A stretch of 64,000 nt of DNA, from the sequence record MN850564.1; one strand, 5' to 3'. The notes beneath the pieces are model-generated. The model did not search any database, was not told the DNA's origin, and saw only the letters and a program-made list of their open reading frames with translations. This document shows, piece by piece, positions 36,277 through 48,837 of this stretch. The stretch comes from Escherichia phage humlepung. The translations under genes were made by a program, and so were the position numbers. Within the stretch, counting starts at the first letter, position 1. Every line of letters begins with the position of its first letter.

Positions 36277-38616
36277 ATGGCAGATTACAAGTTGAGTGAA
36301 TTAAACTCAATCGACACAATCCGTTCAGACGACCTTCTCCATGTCAGGGTTAAAAAGAGACCTGAAATGTTAGGTGATGAAGACCGTCGAATGACCTATC
36401 AAGACTTCTTAGCGTCTTTTAAACTAGAAAGATTTGTTCAGATTGCTGGTAGCACTATGACGGGTGACTTAGGAATTGTCAAGTTACTTTATGGTGGTAA
36501 GGCAGTATTTGACCCTACAGACTCTTCTGAGATTACTATGGGGGATGTTTTAAAGGCTTTTAAAATCAATGCAAACGGTCTTAAACTAACTATTGCAGAT
36601 GCTTCAAGGTCTGCAACTGTTTATCATACTCTGAATAAGCCAAGCCCTAATGAACTTGGGATGAGAACTAATGAAGAGAATGACGCAAGATATGCAAGGT
36701 TGGCTGTTACAAACACATTTAACTCTAAACAGACCATTGTAGCAAATGGGGAACAGTTAACACTAAGGTCTCCTGTGAGTGGGGATAGAGCATACTCTGC
36801 TATTGTAGGTAGGGATGCAAGTAATGAAAAAACTTGGGCTATTGGGAACCTGATTAGGGGTAGTCTTGATGTTCAAATCGAGAGTAAACTAGGTTCCATC
36901 CTCACTCTAGGCACGGCTGCTTCTTTTAATAGGTCTTTATCAATCAATGGTCAAGTGCAACCTTCTGACTTCTCTAACTTGGATGCAAGATACTTCACAC
37001 AGACAGCAGCTAATCAGAGATTTGCACAGCTAGTTGGCAATAACACCTTCAGGGGTATTAACAATTTTGTAGGAGAGTTCAATATCACCAGAGATAACGC
37101 TGTGCTAGTCATTAAGAATGCCACTGCTGCAACTGGACTATACTTGCTGGGGCAGAAGGCTGATGGGACAAACAAGTTCTACTTAGGGACTGATAACTCT
37201 GATTCTGCAGTCAACCTACATAACTACACCACGAGTACAACTATCTCTTTGTCAAATGTGATTACCACTACTAAGACTGTGAAAATCACTGGTCAAGTTC
37301 AGCCTTCAGATTGGGCTAACATTGACTCTAGATACATTCCAGCAGCAACATTAAGTACAATTGCAAGAACTAATGCAAGTAACACGTTCACTGCAAAGCA
37401 GGTTATTAACACTAATGGTGAAGCTCTTGTGTTACAAGGAAAAACAACCGCCGCACTTTACATTAGGGGTAAGGACTATGATGGAACGAATAGGTGGTAT
37501 GTTGGCAATGATGACGGTAGTGACACTGTTAGTTTGTATAACTATAAAACTGGTAAAAACCTAAGCATTGGTTCCGAAGTATCAATTAATGCAAACTTAG
37601 TAATTGGTGGTCAAGTACAACCTAGCAACTTCACAAACTTTGATGCAAGGTATTACGGTAAAGCCGAAGCCGATTCAAAGTATTTCTGGTCAGCATTCAG
37701 AGCTTCGAAGACCGAGGCTGCTGGTGGTGTGGCTTGGGACCAACCATCAGGAATCTATCTTGAGACAAAATCTAGCGGGCAAAACCGTTTAGTCTTGCAC
37801 ATGGCCTCTAATGCGAAAGCCCTAACACCATCTGCACAATTAAGATTTGAATCGAAAAATGGTGGGATGTGGTACAGGTCAGCCAGAGACACACTTGGCT
37901 TTGAGGTTGAATGGTCTAAGGTTTACACTGAAGCTCAGAAACCTACCCCTTCAGAGATTGGTGCATACACTAAAGCTGAAACTGACCAGAAGATTGCAGA
38001 AGCAATTAGTGACTCTACAGACCTGAATAAAATCTATCCAGTAGGTATTGTGACGTGGTTTAACAGTAATGTTAACCCTAATACAGCACTGCCTGGCCTA
38101 ACTTGGACGTATCTGAAGAATGGTGTTGGTAGGACTATTAGAATTGCAGCAGCAAATGGTTCAGATGTTGCTACAACTGGTGGTTCAGATTCTGTAACGT
38201 TAGCTGTTGGTAACTTACCTTCGCACACGCACAGTTTTTCTGCGACTACCTCATCGTTTGACTACGGAACAAAAAACACTAACACGACTGGTGCTCACAC
38301 TCACTCTGTAAGTGGCTCTACTTCATCTGCTGGTAACCACAACCATTCCATTTCGTGGATTGGTCAGAACTCTACACACTACTCTGGTGGTGGTGGTGGT
38401 AGTATTGGTGTAGGACCGGGTTACACCGATGTTAACGGTGCTCACACCCACTCCGTAAGTGGTACTGCCGCTTCTGCTGGTAACCATGCTCACAGTGTTG
38501 GTATTGGTGCTCACAGTCATACAGTAAGTGGTAACACTGGTGGTACAGGTTCTGGTTCAGCATTTAGTGTTACTAACCAGTTCTACAAGTTAATGGCTTG
38601 GGTGAGAACTGCTTAA
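36277..38616 (+). CDS. long tail fibre protein with C-terminal His-x-His repeat domain
   Basis: 779 aa; internal GQVQPS(D/N)F repeats; C-terminal HTHS...HAHS...HSHT repeats ending KLMAWVRTA. Confidence 0.65.
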   Translation: MADYKLSELNSIDTIRSDDLLHVRVKKRPEMLGDEDRRMTYQDFLASFKLERFVQIAGSTMTGDLGIVKLLYGGKAVFDPTDSSEITMGDVLKAFKINANGLKLTIADASRSATVYHTLNKPSPNELGMRTNEENDARYARLAVTNTFNSKQTIVANGEQLTLRSPVSGDRAYSAIVGRDASNEKTWAIGNLIRGSLDVQIESKLGSILTLGTAASFNRSLSINGQVQPSDFSNLDARYFTQTAANQRFAQLVGNNTFRGINNFVGEFNITRDNAVLVIKNATAATGLYLLGQKADGTNKFYLGTDNSDSAVNLHNYTTSTTISLSNVITTTKTVKITGQVQPSDWANIDSRYIPAATLSTIARTNASNTFTAKQVINTNGEALVLQGKTTAALYIRGKDYDGTNRWYVGNDDGSDTVSLYNYKTGKNLSIGSEVSINANLVIGGQVQPSNFTNFDARYYGKAEADSKYFWSAFRASKTEAAGGVAWDQPSGIYLETKSSGQNRLVLHMASNAKALTPSAQLRFESKNGGMWYRSARDTLGFEVEWSKVYTEAQKPTPSEIGAYTKAETDQKIAEAISDSTDLNKIYPVGIVTWFNSNVNPNTALPGLTWTYLKNGVGRTIRIAAANGSDVATTGGSDSVTLAVGNLPSHTHSFSATTSSFDYGTKNTNTTGAHTHSVSGSTSSAGNHNHSISWIGQNSTHYSGGGGGSIGVGPGYTDVNGAHTHSVSGTAASAGNHAHSVGIGAHSHTVSGNTGGTGSGSAFSVTNQFYKLMAWVRTA

Positions 38617-39267: not shown

Positions 39268-39295
39268 AAGGCTCCTTTTTACGGGAGCCTTTTTT
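39268..39295. terminator. Bidirectional terminator ggctcc-tttttacg-ggagcc flanked by A-run and T-run
   Basis: Sits between convergent genes ending at 39262 (+) and 39299 (-). Confidence 0.6.
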
Positions 39296-42398: not shown

Positions 42399-42782
42399 TC
42401 AAATACCTGTGCAGCTTCTGTTTTCTAAGAAATACTCAACACCATACATAGCTTTTTGCATCAAATCTTCTTTAAACTGGATACGGTGGTTGAGCATAGC
42501 TTGTACATCAATATCGTCATGGTGTTTCTCTTTAATATTTGCAGATTGCAGGAAATACTCTGCAAGAACACGATACTGGTAGTCAGTTACCTTATCAGTC
42601 ATCTCTGTCAAAGACTCTTCAGAGATTGGTTTAAGTAGCTCACCATTAGCCAGAGCAACACCTTTTACAATCTGGCAAGTATCTTCTGGAACACCTGACA
42701 AGTCCACATTTGGAAGTTCTGTTGCATTGACTGGTAAATTCATTGTCATAACCATTGCAGCAGCTAATAAAATCTTTTTCAT
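42399..42782 (-). CDS. secreted/periplasmic protein with N-terminal signal peptide (127 aa)
   Basis: MKKILLAAAMVMTMNLPVNA signal-like N-terminus; GAGGT RBS. Confidence 0.5.
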   Translation of the reverse strand: MKKILLAAAMVMTMNLPVNATELPNVDLSGVPEDTCQIVKGVALANGELLKPISEESLTEMTDKVTDYQYRVLAEYFLQSANIKEKHHDDIDVQAMLNHRIQFKEDLMQKAMYGVEYFLENRSCTGI

Positions 42783-43130: not shown

Positions 43131-43343
43131 GGTGAGTACCCGTTGGTTTATGCTGCTCAGTATACTCACCAAATTTTCTATGTCAACAACTTTTTATAAA
43201 AAAGTTCTGATAGCTATATGTGTCACGAAACAAAAGATTGTAAACAAGACACCCATTGCAAAAGATGTGTCCAAAAGCTTACTTGCAACGTATGACAATA
43301 CAAAGACAACCAGTATAAACAGAATGACTGTACTGAACATAGT

Positions 43344-44444
43344 TTACTCATAATCCCTAATAACTAGCCCGACAGGGAACTGTAAAGAACCCTTACGAGT
43401 CATCTTCTGGAACTGTACCGTTAAAGGCTTCCCGATAAACTCTTCAGGATGCTCAGCAAGATACTGTTTCTTCTCATGAGTAGTCTTCCATGATACATCT
43501 ACAAAGACGTTAGGAAGAGTCTCTACAACGAACTTACCATGACCACGTTTATCAGTCTTTACACCAGTCACTTTAAACTCTTCAGTGTGCATCTTCTTGT
43601 GCTTAATCAAGAAGTATGAACGGTGACCACACTCATAGAAAGATTCTTCAGAGATTGAACGGTACATTGCACCTTCAAACTTAGCTTCAACCCACTTATC
43701 ATGAGCTTCATCAAATTCTTCCCAAGAATTTACACGACGAGACTTAACAGGAACAACTTTACAGCCATCTCTAAAGTCATTCAATGGTGAAGTCTCAATA
43801 ATATCTCTACGCTCAGGCCACGTCTTAGTGCTGTCACAGATATCGTACCAGTAGAACTGGAGTAGATGTCGGTCTGGATTGTCAGCATTTTTAATCATAG
43901 ACACAATATCTTCTAAGTCCCAACCATGAGCATAAATCTCACCATCAAAGTCTTCGACTTGTGGATGCAATTTAAGCAACAAAAGCAAATCTGGGATTAG
44001 TTCTGCTGGGACGTTGTAAATAGTATTCTCACGAGAATAAGCCGTGAAGCTAACTAAATCAGCATCTCTTGAGATTCTACAACGTACACCATCAAGTTTT
44101 GGTTGAGCATCAGCAGGGAACTTCAGATACTTTGCATGACTAACCTTTGCAGCATCATGAGCAAGCTGTACACCTACCTTCTCAGTATTCTGTGCAGACT
44201 CTTTTGTGTAAGCATAACCTTTACGGTCAACTTGCTTTTTATACTTAGCAGCAACTTCAAAGAGAGCTTGCTGTTCAGCGTTACGCTCATTCTTTTTACC
44301 GATGTTCTTAGGCTCTGCTGTATACTCTTCAAACATCATCTTGCCATTCTCTTTACCATAGGTTGTAATAACTTTGTCACCTACAGCAACACATGACCAG
44401 ACGTTGAAGGAACCATCTTTATTTTGTTTGTACAGAATTGTCAT
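43344..44444 (-). CDS. ATP-dependent DNA ligase
   Basis: Adenylation motif KLDGVR (KxDGxR); start placed at internal ATG with GAGGT RBS (alternative start 44480). Confidence 0.7.
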   Translation of the reverse strand: MTILYKQNKDGSFNVWSCVAVGDKVITTYGKENGKMMFEEYTAEPKNIGKKNERNAEQQALFEVAAKYKKQVDRKGYAYTKESAQNTEKVGVQLAHDAAKVSHAKYLKFPADAQPKLDGVRCRISRDADLVSFTAYSRENTIYNVPAELIPDLLLLLKLHPQVEDFDGEIYAHGWDLEDIVSMIKNADNPDRHLLQFYWYDICDSTKTWPERRDIIETSPLNDFRDGCKVVPVKSRRVNSWEEFDEAHDKWVEAKFEGAMYRSISEESFYECGHRSYFLIKHKKMHTEEFKVTGVKTDKRGHGKFVVETLPNVFVDVSWKTTHEKKQYLAEHPEEFIGKPLTVQFQKMTRKGSLQFPVGLVIRDYE

Positions 44445-44637
44445 TTTTAACCTCTGAGTGATACCAAGTATTGCAAGCATTACATGCGTAAAGCTCTAAG
44501 TCATTTTTATCTGGTTTGTGGAAACAGTTTGACCCACAACGACACCGGAATAGCTTACCATCAACACGAAGAATGAATGTTTCAAGCTCACCATCTTCTG
44601 TAAGAACTGCGTTCTTAAATTTATCTTCTACAGTCAT
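44419..44637 (-). CDS. small Cys-rich protein (72 aa)
   Basis: CRC...CNAC motif; ORF. Confidence 0.4.
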   Translation of the reverse strand: MTVEDKFKNAVLTEDGELETFILRVDGKLFRCRCGSNCFHKPDKNDLELYACNACNTWYHSEVKNDNSVQTK

Positions 44638-44850: not shown

Positions 44851-45120
44851 TCACTCAATAACCGTAGTGTGTGATTGACCATTTTTGCCATAGCTATAAG
44901 ATGTTGTTGTTTGGGAGTTTGGACATCTGACAACAACAATATCTCTGCTTATAGCATCACCATGTAACTTGTATACTTTGCAATCTTGCATCTCTGGTGG
45001 GAGACTGTAAGAAGCATTTTTATCTTCATAAGAAGGGTTGCAGCCAGATAGAAAAACAACACCAAGCGCAATTACTGCTTTCCACATAATACTTCCCCAG
45101 AGACTGTACATTTTCTTCAT
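44851..45120 (-). CDS. small lipoprotein (lipobox LSGC)
   Basis: N-terminal hydrophobic signal ending in LSG-C. Confidence 0.5.
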   Translation of the reverse strand: MKKMYSLWGSIMWKAVIALGVVFLSGCNPSYEDKNASYSLPPEMQDCKVYKLHGDAISRDIVVVRCPNSQTTTSYSYGKNGQSHTTVIE

Positions 45121-45350
45121 AGCAACTCCAGAATATCAATACGTTCGCCCTTAAGGACTCCAGTACGGTCTCTTGCAATCTTGCCGTCAACAATAAGGAT
45201 ATGTGCAGCCCTTAAAGAGTCACTATTAAAAGCTTTTACGAACTTACTAGGCATCACTACAATGGGCATCTCCTGAATCAACTCTGGAGTATAGCAATTG
45301 TCGTGAAGTTGCTGAATAACGTCTGCAAGTGTCATTTTTGATGTCTCCAA
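45117..45350 (-). CDS. hypothetical protein (77 aa)
   Basis: ORF. Confidence 0.4.
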   Translation of the reverse strand: METSKMTLADVIQQLHDNCYTPELIQEMPIVVMPSKFVKAFNSDSLRAAHILIVDGKIARDRTGVLKGERIDILELL

Positions 45351-45592: not shown

Positions 45593-46096
45593 TCAACTTA
45601 GTTTTGCAAACTCTCCGTGGAGTTTAATAGCAGCTTCACAGTAAGCTTTATGGGCTTCTTCTGGTGTGTCAAATAAACCAAGTGATGTCCTTTTACCTCT
45701 GCATGTTATAGCTGCCCTCCACTTATTGCAGTCTTTAAAGTAATGTACACCCTTGTAACCTGATTTGTTAGTCGTCTGCTTTACCCTATTTTGAGCATTT
45801 CCGTATTTATCAGTCTCCCTAAGATTAGAAATGTGATTATTACTTCTGTTACCATCAATGTGGTCTATCATCTTAGTGGGTTTGTAACCATGTTCGAACC
45901 ACCAAACGAGGTGATGAATTTTTATTACGACATCTTTGAATTTAAGTACTTTGTAACCGTAAGCATCAGCACCTCCTGCAATCTGCCCAGCTTTAGCTTG
46001 TCTATTCCTGTCATACTTGTTGTAGAAGACCCCTTTGTCGGGGTCGTAAATAAAATTATCCTTGTAGTCTTGAAGTGTTAGTGTACGGCGTACCAT
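45593..46096 (-). CDS. HNH homing endonuclease with AP2-type DNA-binding domain
   Basis: HNH core HHLVWWFEHGY...IDHIDGNRSNNHISNLR; C-terminal YKGV...LGLFDTPEEAHKAY AP2-like segment. Confidence 0.75.
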   Translation of the reverse strand: MVRRTLTLQDYKDNFIYDPDKGVFYNKYDRNRQAKAGQIAGGADAYGYKVLKFKDVVIKIHHLVWWFEHGYKPTKMIDHIDGNRSNNHISNLRETDKYGNAQNRVKQTTNKSGYKGVHYFKDCNKWRAAITCRGKRTSLGLFDTPEEAHKAYCEAAIKLHGEFAKLS

Positions 46097-48777
46097 GTCT
46101 TACCTACCTTACCAGTGCCTGTAACAAGCGTCTTACTCTTTAATCCAAGATTTTTTGATGCTTGACCATACATTCTATCAATAATCTCCTTAACATCAGG
46201 TACATCTTTGGTTGGAACCTCTAAAGAGACCTCATCGTGGTAACTACAGACCCACCTAGCACCAATAGCTGGCTTCCTACCATTTAGAACTGTAAGCTTG
46301 CGCTCTGTTAACTCCCTGTTAGCCAAGTTAATACCCTCATTCTGCACCTGCGCCTCACTGCCCATAAGTGTGTAATTCAATAACTTATGTGGAGATTTAC
46401 ACCATAACCACGCCCCAGCAACCTTGATATAGCCACCTTTTGCAATTGCAGAAGTCTTTCCGAAAACCTCTTCAAGTGCTTTCTTAGTTGCTTTGAAGTC
46501 TTCCTCTAGTCTATCAAGCAGCTTTTTAATCTTAGGTAGACGCACAAAGTAAGTTTGTTTAGTCAATGCACCCTCTTCCGTAGATGATGCCTTGATAGTT
46601 TTTGCAAACTTCTCGTCTCCGGCTCCAAATAACAGGGCGTAGATGCCATTTTTGCTCTTCTTACGACCTTTTGTAATCTCGTGGAGAAGTTCCTCATCCT
46701 GTGTCTCCCTGCAACGAACAATATCCTCTTCTTTGTTAAGACCAAAGTAAATACTGTTCAGTGTATGCGCATCAGTCCCTGTGTAGACTTCATAGAGGTC
46801 ATTTTCAGCATCATAACGCAGATACTTGTCAGTTTCTGGGTTAAGATACTTGTCAAGATGTTTACAGTAGTATCTACCATCATCTTGCTTAGTGAACTCT
46901 ACTGACTCTTTACCCTCAGTTACCGCTTTAGTGAAGTCTTCATCACCCATAAAGTTACAAAGAAGAACTAGCTGGGCTGAGTTTTGGTCTACGGAGATGA
47001 TATCTGTACCATCTTCACAAGTCCACACCTCCCTCATAGGTGCTCCATAGACAGCAGCACCAGACGGTACGTTTACAATACCATATTGTGTCATACGTCC
47101 AGTTGAAGTGCCAAACACCATTGCACCAGCACTAAGGCGACCATCAGGACGAATCTGGTTCAACCAACCTTTTTCATCATCCTTTGAGTTCTCAATAGTT
47201 CTGCGTCGGTGCATCAAAGTATAGTACTTAGCAATCTTCTGTCCAAGCTCACCTTCAATCGTATCATAAGATGATTCAGTAAGTTTTGGTGAAGTACGGA
47301 TTAAGCAAGGTTCAAGCAAATCTGTGTATTTCTTCACAGACCAGTTATGCTCGATGTACTGTACACCTTCATGTTCAACATAACTCAAACCACACCGCTC
47401 AACCATTTCCTGCCACTTAGGATGCTTTGTAATCATCTTTTTATTGTCTTTGAAACGACAAACTTTGATAGGGCGACCATCTGAGTCTTTCTTGTAATTC
47501 CAGTCATCTGGAATCCAACCAACTGATTTCAAGTAGTCTTTAACAACTGCTACCTGAGTCATACGAGAAACTTCAAACTCAATTGGTGTATATGGTGCAT
47601 CAATCAAACCTGTGTAGCGACTTGACTCAAGTTCAAAGTGATTGACAACGTGACTGTTATAGTACTTCACAGTCTTGACTGTTTTTACTGGTTTCCAGTC
47701 TTTGCATTTTTTGCCAATCTTTGCATTCAACTCGTTGCAGATTGCACGAGCATCCTTCATCGCTACAAAACCCTCTTTGTACTCTTCACCAGTTACAGAG
47801 TTGGTTGGTGTATAGCAATTTCTCTTTTCAATGTTAAAAATCTTTGTAGTTGGCTTACCAAATGGTTTGATTTCATAAGTCTGCATCTCACCATTACGTA
47901 CCTGCTGACGATACTTTGTCTTAGGGTACTTGGTAATTCTCTTCAGTCCATCTGCATGACCAAATGTTTCAACATACTCATTCCAAGCTTTTGCAAACTC
48001 TTCTCCAGTGACTTTACCTTTGGTCTTAATAGTTGGAGGAAGATGTGGTTCAACCTCTGAAGCAAGTTCATTAGTCAATTTGTCAAGCTCCTTTACATGG
48101 AACTCCATAAGCTCCTTATCAGCTTTCCAACCATTGATAGCTTGCTGGCTCATCCAGAAAGATGTCTCTTTAGCTCGCATGTAAGTCTCATAAGTGTCTA
48201 TACCACACTTCTTAAGCTTGAGATACTCGTTATCAAGTGCCCGTTTAGTTTTGGCATTAATACGGATATCTTCTACAACACGAGTGAAGATTTCTGCATT
48301 CCACACACCCCAATGTTCAATCTCTGGTTTACGGACACCAACACGAGCACCCCATGCAGCCAAACCATGAGCACCTTTATAACCCTTTGGGGTTGGCCTA
48401 TCCATCCACTGAACACGAGACTGGATAAGAGAGTCCTGAAAGAAATTACTCCACGGTTTACACTTTGGATTATCAAAGTTCCATAAATCAGGTGCAATGT
48501 GATTGAAAACCCACCAGTCATAACCGAGACCATTATGGATGCAAAGACGTTTTGCCTTTAACGCAAATTCAACACCTTCACGTAAACCACCTTTGATGTA
48601 CTTAGTGTACTTGTGACCGAGGATAGGCTCATCTGTAAAGACCCATACAGGTGGCTCTTCATCGTCAGATTTATAGTCTGCAAAGGCCATTACGTGAACT
48701 TTAGTGAACTCAAGGAGTAAACCATCAGTTTCTGTATCACCAACCAAATGTAAGTTTTTAAAATCTACGTTTTCCAT
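46078..48777 (-). CDS. DNA polymerase, family A, with 3'-5' exonuclease domain
   Basis: Exo motif GDTETDGL, Pol A motif C-like HDEVSLEV; start at MENVDFKN with AGGGAG RBS (track start 48807). Confidence 0.85.
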   Translation of the reverse strand: MENVDFKNLHLVGDTETDGLLLEFTKVHVMAFADYKSDDEEPPVWVFTDEPILGHKYTKYIKGGLREGVEFALKAKRLCIHNGLGYDWWVFNHIAPDLWNFDNPKCKPWSNFFQDSLIQSRVQWMDRPTPKGYKGAHGLAAWGARVGVRKPEIEHWGVWNAEIFTRVVEDIRINAKTKRALDNEYLKLKKCGIDTYETYMRAKETSFWMSQQAINGWKADKELMEFHVKELDKLTNELASEVEPHLPPTIKTKGKVTGEEFAKAWNEYVETFGHADGLKRITKYPKTKYRQQVRNGEMQTYEIKPFGKPTTKIFNIEKRNCYTPTNSVTGEEYKEGFVAMKDARAICNELNAKIGKKCKDWKPVKTVKTVKYYNSHVVNHFELESSRYTGLIDAPYTPIEFEVSRMTQVAVVKDYLKSVGWIPDDWNYKKDSDGRPIKVCRFKDNKKMITKHPKWQEMVERCGLSYVEHEGVQYIEHNWSVKKYTDLLEPCLIRTSPKLTESSYDTIEGELGQKIAKYYTLMHRRRTIENSKDDEKGWLNQIRPDGRLSAGAMVFGTSTGRMTQYGIVNVPSGAAVYGAPMREVWTCEDGTDIISVDQNSAQLVLLCNFMGDEDFTKAVTEGKESVEFTKQDDGRYYCKHLDKYLNPETDKYLRYDAENDLYEVYTGTDAHTLNSIYFGLNKEEDIVRCRETQDEELLHEITKGRKKSKNGIYALLFGAGDEKFAKTIKASSTEEGALTKQTYFVRLPKIKKLLDRLEEDFKATKKALEEVFGKTSAIAKGGYIKVAGAWLWCKSPHKLLNYTLMGSEAQVQNEGINLANRELTERKLTVLNGRKPAIGARWVCSYHDEVSLEVPTKDVPDVKEIIDRMYGQASKNLGLKSKTLVTGTGKVGKTWYAVH

Positions 48778-48837
48778 TTTTACTCCCTCTAAAATCATTA
48801 ACCTCATACATTACTGCAAAAAATTATAAAAAGCAAG

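Follow-up and report, generated by a model that had tools for sequence, protein, structure and literature searches.

The described systems closest to the locus considered here are small envelope proteins of other phages. T4 Sp (Spackle), a soluble periplasmic helical protein, and T4 Imm, located in the inner membrane, are not lipoproteins; both serve a virulent myovirus by blocking superinfection after adsorption, independently of the receptor. The o-spanins, e.g., lambda Rz1, T4 PseT.3, and ORF7 of Salmonella phage Felix O1, are small outer-membrane lipoproteins with conserved periplasmic cysteines. T5 Llp and the Cor proteins of T1, phi80, and N15 are also small phage lipoproteins, of ~60 mature residues and with a conserved cysteine pair. 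In Llp, this pair forms a disulfide (Cys11-Cys58); the llp and cor genes adjoin the gene of the receptor-binding protein, and the target is the TonB-dependent transporter FhuA, at its periplasmic face (PMC9586334). We analyzed a 64-kb stretch of DNA from Escherichia phage humlepung (MN850564.1; hereafter the window) and, within it, a minus-strand gene that the initial annotation had put forward as a lipoprotein mediating superinfection exclusion or receptor blocking in the manner of Llp and Cor. The lipoprotein part of that proposal is well founded, whereas mature-domain homology, cysteine layout, gene position, and receptor all fail to support an Llp/Cor-like action on the receptor that the phage itself uses. 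By nucleotide identity, the phage is a Felixounavirus (Felix O1-like): it shares 96% identity with Felix O1 over 40–64 kb of the window, and around the lipoprotein gene, over 4 kb, identity is 94–96% with Felix O1 and with the Escherichia phages momo, tootiki, and skuden.

Lipoprotein signal and family membership

The sequence and the list of open reading frames (ORFs) both contain the 89-aa minus-strand ORF as first described (Table 1). Its product begins with a signal peptide that ends, again as first described, in the lipobox LSGC, with a charged start, a hydrophobic core, and Cys27 as the last residue of the box. In the signal start, MKKMYSLWGSIMWK-AVIALGVVF, there is no Asp, Glu, Arg, or Lys among the 10 residues preceding the cysteine. 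Two start codons can be considered, i.e., Met1 and Met12, and they yield an identical mature product; from either, the sequence conforms to a PROSITE PS00013-type rule, with no Asp, Glu, Arg, or Lys in the six residues before the box, a Lys or Arg in the first seven residues, and the cysteine between positions 15 and 35. The several cysteines initially ascribed to the mature part reduce to two beyond Cys27, namely Cys47 and Cys66.

We screened all six frames of the window for lipoprotein signals with a regular expression combined with hydropathy. The box of the 89-aa product conforms to the lipobox pattern [LVI][ASTVI][GAS]C with the cysteine at position 15–35, and its gene was the one lipoprotein-signal ORF recovered, compared to a mean of 0.03 in shuffled windows (n = 100). 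The Sf17 orthologue carries a PROSITE PS51257 flag from one independent annotator, and several relatives are named 'Lipoprotein' in UniProt. On these sequence features, the 89-aa product is very probably a genuine bacterial-type prolipoprotein.

Judged by profile matches, the protein is an ordinary but uncharacterized member of a large phage lipoprotein family. It matches phrog_902 over residues 11–87 (E = 2.4e-17), a profile that is also matched by all 80 of the 80 aligned relatives, and a hidden Markov model of the family built in this work scores it at 108 bits. Profile searches in a library of 1.84 billion representative proteins (representatives at 50% identity) returned 659 family representatives at E ≤ 0.001 and 105 at E ≤ 1e-10, nearly all of them 75–100 aa long. 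PF16225 (DUF4884) is listed in a precomputed table for every homologue returned, and a hmmscan search of Pfam-A returned PF16225 for no member; the DUF4884 label, taken from the precomputed table only, is probable for the family. DUF4884 is annotated in Bacteroides too (e.g., BT_3183).

The lipid-attachment cysteine column is filled in 149 of 150 aligned sequences, with L[ATVS][GA]C boxes dominating, and a lipobox regular expression matched 138 of the 149 members scanned, the remaining ones being near-variants. Three cysteines are invariant across the best 149 members: the lipid-attached residue and the equivalents of Cys47 and Cys66. The conserved core contains two motifs, Y-x-L-P-x-E-[LM]-x-D-C-K-[IV]-Y and V-V-R-C-P-N-S-x-T-T-T-x-Y-x-x-G-K, and the window protein shows the family hallmarks in cysteines (three), motifs (LPxELxDCK[IV]Y and VVRCPNSxTTT...GK), and length (75–100 aa). 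Cysteines of the mature part are even in number in most members (132 of 149), as expected for an oxidizing compartment. Longer members differ by variable C-terminal tails only and have no added domains. LPAM_1, a model of the lipoprotein attachment site, matches 15 of 80 family members; for the protein and its 80 relatives, searches of Pfam-A, NCBIfam, and PADLOC gave matches at the level of the signal peptide only (LPAM_1, LptM, EexN, PqiC, TrbK, and Rz1-like).

A tblastn search placed the family in 586 phage records. These span at least six phage lineages, including Ounavirinae (Felixounavirus and Mooglevirus), Vequintavirinae (Certrevirus), the jumbo genera Asteriusvirus and Eneladusvirus, T4-like Straboviridae of Aeromonas, the T4-type Acinetobacter phage Acj61, and T5-like Demerecviridae of Vibrio; the host genera are Escherichia, Salmonella, Klebsiella, Cronobacter, Yersinia, Erwinia, Aeromonas, Vibrio, and Acinetobacter. 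Domain identity across lineages is ~30–45%. A DUF4884 protein also appears in the genome table of the 49.9-kb coliphage Henu8 (PMC12210894). When Ounavirinae, Straboviridae, Demerecviridae, and Asteriusvirus were compared, no neighboring gene was shared between lineages. In metagenomic contexts, the gene lies in runs of small unidirectional ORFs with no Pfam matches, which are typical of phage early regions. One family member with an intact lipobox occurs on a 2.23-Mb contig of 24–30% GC (JGI 3300047323, L024 10001..10255; also L025). The genes of that contig are mostly without Pfam matches and include ankyrin repeats, a Cys-tRNA synthetase, and a dUTPase, and it resembles a giant virus or an unusual symbiont more than a phage.

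We calculated pairwise ratios of nonsynonymous to synonymous divergence (dN/dS) over the mature region by the Nei-Gojobori method. Values were 0.05–0.24 against the four Felixounavirus orthologues compared and 0.42 for one other pair of low divergence (L011 and L012); against Mooglevirus, synonymous sites were saturated and dN was 0.05–0.13. Such low ratios indicate that the lipoprotein gene is real and under purifying selection. The Felix O1 orthologue, ORF91 (Felix01p170, NP_944949), is annotated as a 'hypothetical protein'. The synonymous divergence between it (L001 4612..4869) and the window gene is 0.77 within flanks that are ~95% identical, which suggests that the allele was swapped in by recombination. 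The window allele is nearest to that of phage LMP34 (98.9% aa identity), and an 11-residue extension of the signal peptide at the N-terminus is common to the window allele, LMP34, and ESCO49.

Mature domain and membrane sorting

We obtained AlphaFold2 models of the full-length protein with 80 sequences and of the mature part with 35 sequences; the predicted local distance difference test (pLDDT) values were 73.5 and 62.4, respectively. Both models contain a linker followed by five β-strands in the same order, and both place Cys47 and Cys66 at the base of one predicted hairpin. From this arrangement, we infer a Cys47-Cys66 disulfide. A Foldseek search of the PDB found nothing at E ≤ 0.001 (best E = 2.0). 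Searching PDB sequences with the family profile matched signal peptides only, T5 Llp being reached through residues 1–18 only, and a BFVD search recovered family members only, named 'Lipoprotein' or uncharacterized.

Under the +2 rule of lipoprotein sorting, Asp at position +2 is the classical Lol-avoidance signal and causes inner-membrane retention. The window protein has Asn at this position, and the mature N-termini of Ounavirinae read C-N-P; this residue predicts outer-membrane sorting of the window protein in Enterobacterales. Relatives from other phages infecting Enterobacterales begin with C-D-A (Asteriusvirus), C-D-N or C-D-A (Certrevirus), and C-D-G (Eneladusvirus), and Asp at +2 predicts their retention in the inner membrane. 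Asp at +2 is found in the Aeromonas homologues as well. If the +2 rule holds, the domain works from a tether in either membrane, which points to a target in the periplasm proper.

Proposed role and alternatives

Tentatively, we read the protein as a periplasmic binder, tethered to a membrane, whose target is a conserved component of the envelope and which would most plausibly provide receptor-independent protection against secondary infection. The precursor would be exported by Sec, lipidated on Cys27 by Lgt, cut by signal peptidase II, and N-acylated; given Asn at +2, its destination via Lol would be the inner leaflet of the outer membrane. There, a short flexible linker would hold a small five-stranded β domain, pinned by the Cys47-Cys66 disulfide made in the periplasm, and this domain would act by binding in the periplasm of the infected cell. 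With 63 residues and no fusions, it is too small for an enzyme, which argues for a binder. The core motif is present in Ounavirinae, Certrevirus, Asteriusvirus, Eneladusvirus, Straboviridae, and Demerecviridae, on at least eight host genera, suggesting that the target is conserved rather than receptor-specific. The binding partner would be an envelope or periplasmic component conserved across Gammaproteobacteria, as distinct from the surface receptor that the phage itself uses. The likeliest role would be to shield the infected cell, independently of the receptor, from phages arriving later. Such a protein would interfere after adsorption, like T4 Sp or Imm and unlike T5 Llp, and the step affected could be, e.g., penetration by the tail tip, digestion of peptidoglycan, or passage of DNA. 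The comparison with Sp and Imm is a functional analogy only, drawn from general knowledge and not from sequence, and the window protein differs from both in being a lipoprotein.

A cell-borne copy is consistent with this proposal. We scanned 185,579 species genomes with the peptide pattern VVRCPNSxTT and found a single bacterial locus, in Hylemonella gracilis (NZ_AEGR01000062, L005 5983..6261); as one stringent pattern was used, this is a lower bound only on the occurrence of the family in bacteria. The homologue is part of an island whose insertion site is a truncated comM-like Mg-chelatase gene. Its neighbors are a helix-turn-helix control protein, a secreted protein of the endonuclease/exonuclease/phosphatase family, and PDC-M68A/B, a candidate defense pair with Lamassu/ABC-3C-like domains. 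A copy carried by a cell among defense genes fits a phage-exclusion benefit and hints at one.

Several points weigh against this reading. Every database name in the family is 'hypothetical', 'lipoprotein', or a domain of unknown function (DUF), and literature searches on Felixounavirus lipoproteins, on the protein accession, on PHROG 902/DUF4884, and on superinfection exclusion and transcriptomes of Felix O1 yielded no functional data. The +2 rule, on which the sorting argument depends, is validated in Enterobacterales only and is modulated by residue +3. The argument from the defense island draws on one locus found with one stringent pattern. Two metagenomic relatives (P0012 and P0013) are frameshifted to 64 aa and lack the domain half that carries RCPNS, and some Felixounavirus lineages thus appear able to do without the gene. 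Finally, other roles in the envelope would fit the same evidence.

In lytic conversion of the Llp/Cor type, the lipoprotein would sit on the inner leaflet of the outer membrane and bind and inactivate the phage's own receptor; superinfection would be stopped and progeny would not be lost on cell debris. We consider this improbable for the window protein, even though the general format corresponds, i.e., a β-rich mature lipoprotein of ~60 residues from a virulent phage, with a conserved cysteine pair and an outer-membrane-type sorting residue (Asn at +2 here, Ser in Llp and Cor). The Cor PHROG is matched weakly by 4 of 80 family members (best E = 7.8e-5), and one public record labels an Asteriusvirus homologue 'Cor superinfection exclusion protein', but the window protein itself does not match that PHROG. 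Nor is there homology in the mature domain: when the family was compared by hhalign with T1 Cor relatives and T5 Llp after removal of signal peptides, the alignment had a probability of 0.4% and an E-value of 0.15 over 10 columns, and full-length profile matches to Llp and Cor did not go beyond the signal peptide, except that Llp also aligned briefly around the first cysteine. The conserved pair is located at mature positions 21 and 40 of 63, at the base of a hairpin, whereas that of Llp and Cor runs from N- to C-terminus, near the chain ends. While T1 cor and T5 llp are next to receptor-binding or tail-tip genes, the window gene lies in the replication block of a lipopolysaccharide-binding myovirus, on the minus strand and 6 kb from the plus-strand tail-fiber ORFs (ending at 38616), past a terminator. 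Felix O1-type phages are reported to target lipopolysaccharide rather than any protein receptor (PMC8594841). The conservation of the same domain across phages with unrelated hosts and receptors is also unlike a co-evolving receptor-specific blocker, and Asp at +2 in relatives does not fit a mechanism that needs the inner leaflet of the outer membrane. A remote homology to Cor and Llp that we considered ('P-x-D-I-K-C-E-A-Y-Y' compared with 'L-P-x-E-L-x-D-C-K-I-Y') was lost once signal peptides were removed, and the Bor, colicin-lysis, and entry-exclusion families were rejected for lack of mature-domain similarity.

Three further explanations were weighed against exclusion. Small phage lipoproteins are most often o-spanins, and the protein could be a lysis-related factor, either an extra o-spanin-like component of the outer membrane or a periplasmic regulator of lysis timing (a tethered antiholin-like binder; cf. 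T4 RI). A spanin PHROG is weakly matched by 3 of 80 members, the Hylemonella homologue matches phrog_456 (1.7e-5), relatives with Asp at +2 would be in the inner membrane, where holins act, and rIIA/rIIB are present in Felix O1. However, Felix O1 has its own overlapping pair, at 5.3–5.8 kb and outside the window, of an i-spanin (ORF6, with an N-terminal transmembrane segment) and an o-spanin (ORF7, with the lipobox MSGC), and no i-spanin partner adjoins or overlaps the lipoprotein gene in any lineage examined. In addition, the mature part is β-rich, with four prolines in 63 residues and a predicted folded domain rather than the proline-rich, extended, and unstructured chain of o-spanins, and it is difficult to see why a bacterial defense island should carry a lysis regulator. 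A role in lysis is therefore quite unlikely. An o-spanin identity was rejected because the genus has a separate Rz/Rz1 pair and the lipoprotein is β-rich without an i-spanin neighbor, and a u-spanin identity because there is no C-terminal transmembrane segment. Somewhat less unlikely, though still doubtful, is a takeover of the host envelope without exclusion, whereby binding of the lipoprotein would inhibit a conserved periplasmic or outer-membrane function of the host, or redirect it (a peptidoglycan hydrolase, an envelope-stress sensor, a protease, or an envelope-located defense) so as to keep the infected cell intact and productive. A target conserved across genera, the periplasmic location, the binder-sized domain, and presumed expression alongside replication genes would all agree with this, as would a second exported protein (127 aa, with a Sec-type signal) encoded 2 kb away in the same block. 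Against it, nothing indicates a particular target, known inhibitor families (MliC/PliC/Ivy-type and immunity proteins) were matched only at signal peptides, and the copy in the bacterial island argues weakly for a benefit to the cell, not to the phage. That the ORF arose by chance or is a functionless gene in decay has a negligible probability: apart from the frameshifted metagenomic versions, the data point the other way, with dN/dS mostly at 0.05–0.24, three cysteines invariant in a family of 659 representatives, synteny kept across Felixounavirus and Mooglevirus, and 0.03 such ORFs per shuffled window. The conservation data effectively refute it.

The record labeled 'Cor superinfection exclusion protein' is that of the Asteriusvirus homologue in Escherichia phage vB_Ec-M-J (EcMJ_513, L015 2501..2752). 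Its match to the Cor PHROG is weak (E = 0.0046) and covers the signal peptide and ~30 residues; the label appears to be an over-call from weak similarity centered on the signal peptide. Correcting such signal-peptide-driven 'Cor' annotations has practical value.

More speculatively, and with less confidence than we attach to the binder proposal itself, DUF4884/PHROG 902 might represent a new class of receptor-independent periplasmic effectors common to many lineages of virulent Gram-negative phages, conferring broad cross-phage exclusion and occasionally co-opted by bacteria into defense islands. If so, a disulfide-locked β domain on either membrane would bind a conserved envelope component, candidate targets being an envelope enzyme of the host or the machinery with which incoming phages penetrate peptidoglycan or bring in their DNA. 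PHROG 902 is among the more widespread phage lipoprotein families without an assigned function (659 clusters at 50% identity). Felixounaviruses find wide use in the typing, biocontrol, and therapy of Salmonella and E. coli, so a phage protein that alters the envelope could affect cocktail design through cross-exclusion.

Genomic setting and neighboring genes

The lipoprotein gene belongs to a tightly packed block of leftward, partly overlapping genes with DNA polymerase at one end and thymidylate synthase at the other. After DNA polymerase come an HNH homing endonuclease and two small genes, then the lipoprotein gene, and after it a further pair of small genes and DNA ligase; by correspondence with Felix O1, dihydrofolate reductase and thymidylate synthase follow further left. 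The immediate neighbors encode soluble proteins of 72 and 68 aa. From its position only, beside the genes of DNA polymerase, ligase, dihydrofolate reductase, and thymidylate synthase, the gene would be an early one, as initially annotated. A scan for promoters and terminators showed no enrichment, and the terminator at the end of the block was the sole useful element. The Met1 start codon (45120..45118) shares bases with the stop codon of the upstream 72-aa gene (TGA, 45119..45117) in an ATGA overlap, which suggests translational coupling. Homologues of 78 aa (P0004, P0005, P0007, P0008, and P0010) begin with MWK or MLK, corresponding to Met12.

Table 1. Coordinates of the lipoprotein gene, its parts, and nearby features in the window
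Feature	Position	Strand	Details
Complete prolipoprotein CDS	44851..45120	minus	ATG at 45120, TGA 44853..44851; 89 aa from Met1
Shine-Dalgarno-like GGAG	45126..45129	minus	5 nt 5' of the Met1 ATG; read from the sequence
Alternative start Met12	45085..45087	minus	78-aa precursor MWKAVIALGVVFLSGC; commonest start among relatives
Signal peptide, residues 1-26	45043..45120	minus	N-terminus MKKMYSLWGSIMWKAVIALGVVFLSGC; positive residues K2, K3, K14; core AVIALGVVF
Lipobox L24-S25-G26-C27	45040..45051	minus	Codons cta tct ggc tgc
Cys27, mature residue 1	45042..45040	minus	Predicted diacylglyceryl-modified residue; Cys16 if counted from Met12
Mature lipoprotein, 63 residues	44854..45042	minus	~12-residue linker (CNPSYEDKNASY), then conserved core; five predicted β-strands
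Cys47 (mature Cys21)	44980..44982	minus	Invariant; directly before strand β2 in both models
Cys66 (mature Cys40)	44923..44925	minus	Invariant, R-C-P-N-S motif; where strand β3 ends or immediately after
Upstream 72-aa gene	45117..45335/45350	minus	From the ORF list
DNA polymerase	48807..46078	minus	Leftward block
DNA ligase	44480..43344	minus	Leftward block
Bidirectional terminator	39268..39291	both	Closes the leftward block

Between DNA polymerase and the run of small genes, the homing endonuclease (HNH/AP2-type; 45593..46096, minus strand) is present in Felix O1 and PMBT20 and absent at the same position in ESCO49, Sf17, ESh21, and UAB_Phi87, and the ligase is annotated as two pieces in several relatives. 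Both observations suggest that this region is a hotspot for mobile endonucleases.

Two other products of the region may also reach the envelope. The 127-aa protein encoded at 42399..42782 (minus strand; Felix O1 ORF87, phrog_4332) has an N-terminus, MKKILLAAAMVMTMNLPVNA|TE, that resembles a Sec/signal-peptidase-I signal, and it would be the second exported protein of the leftward replication block, 2 kb from the lipoprotein gene. ORF87 and DNA ligase are separated by 560 nt that are empty apart from a 48-aa, very hydrophobic ORF (43194..43340, minus strand; MFSTVILFILVVFVLSYVASKLL...FTIFCFVTHIAIRTFL). None is annotated in Felix O1, an ORF of 48 aa is listed at the corresponding place in UAB_Phi87, and the ORF may encode a small membrane protein.

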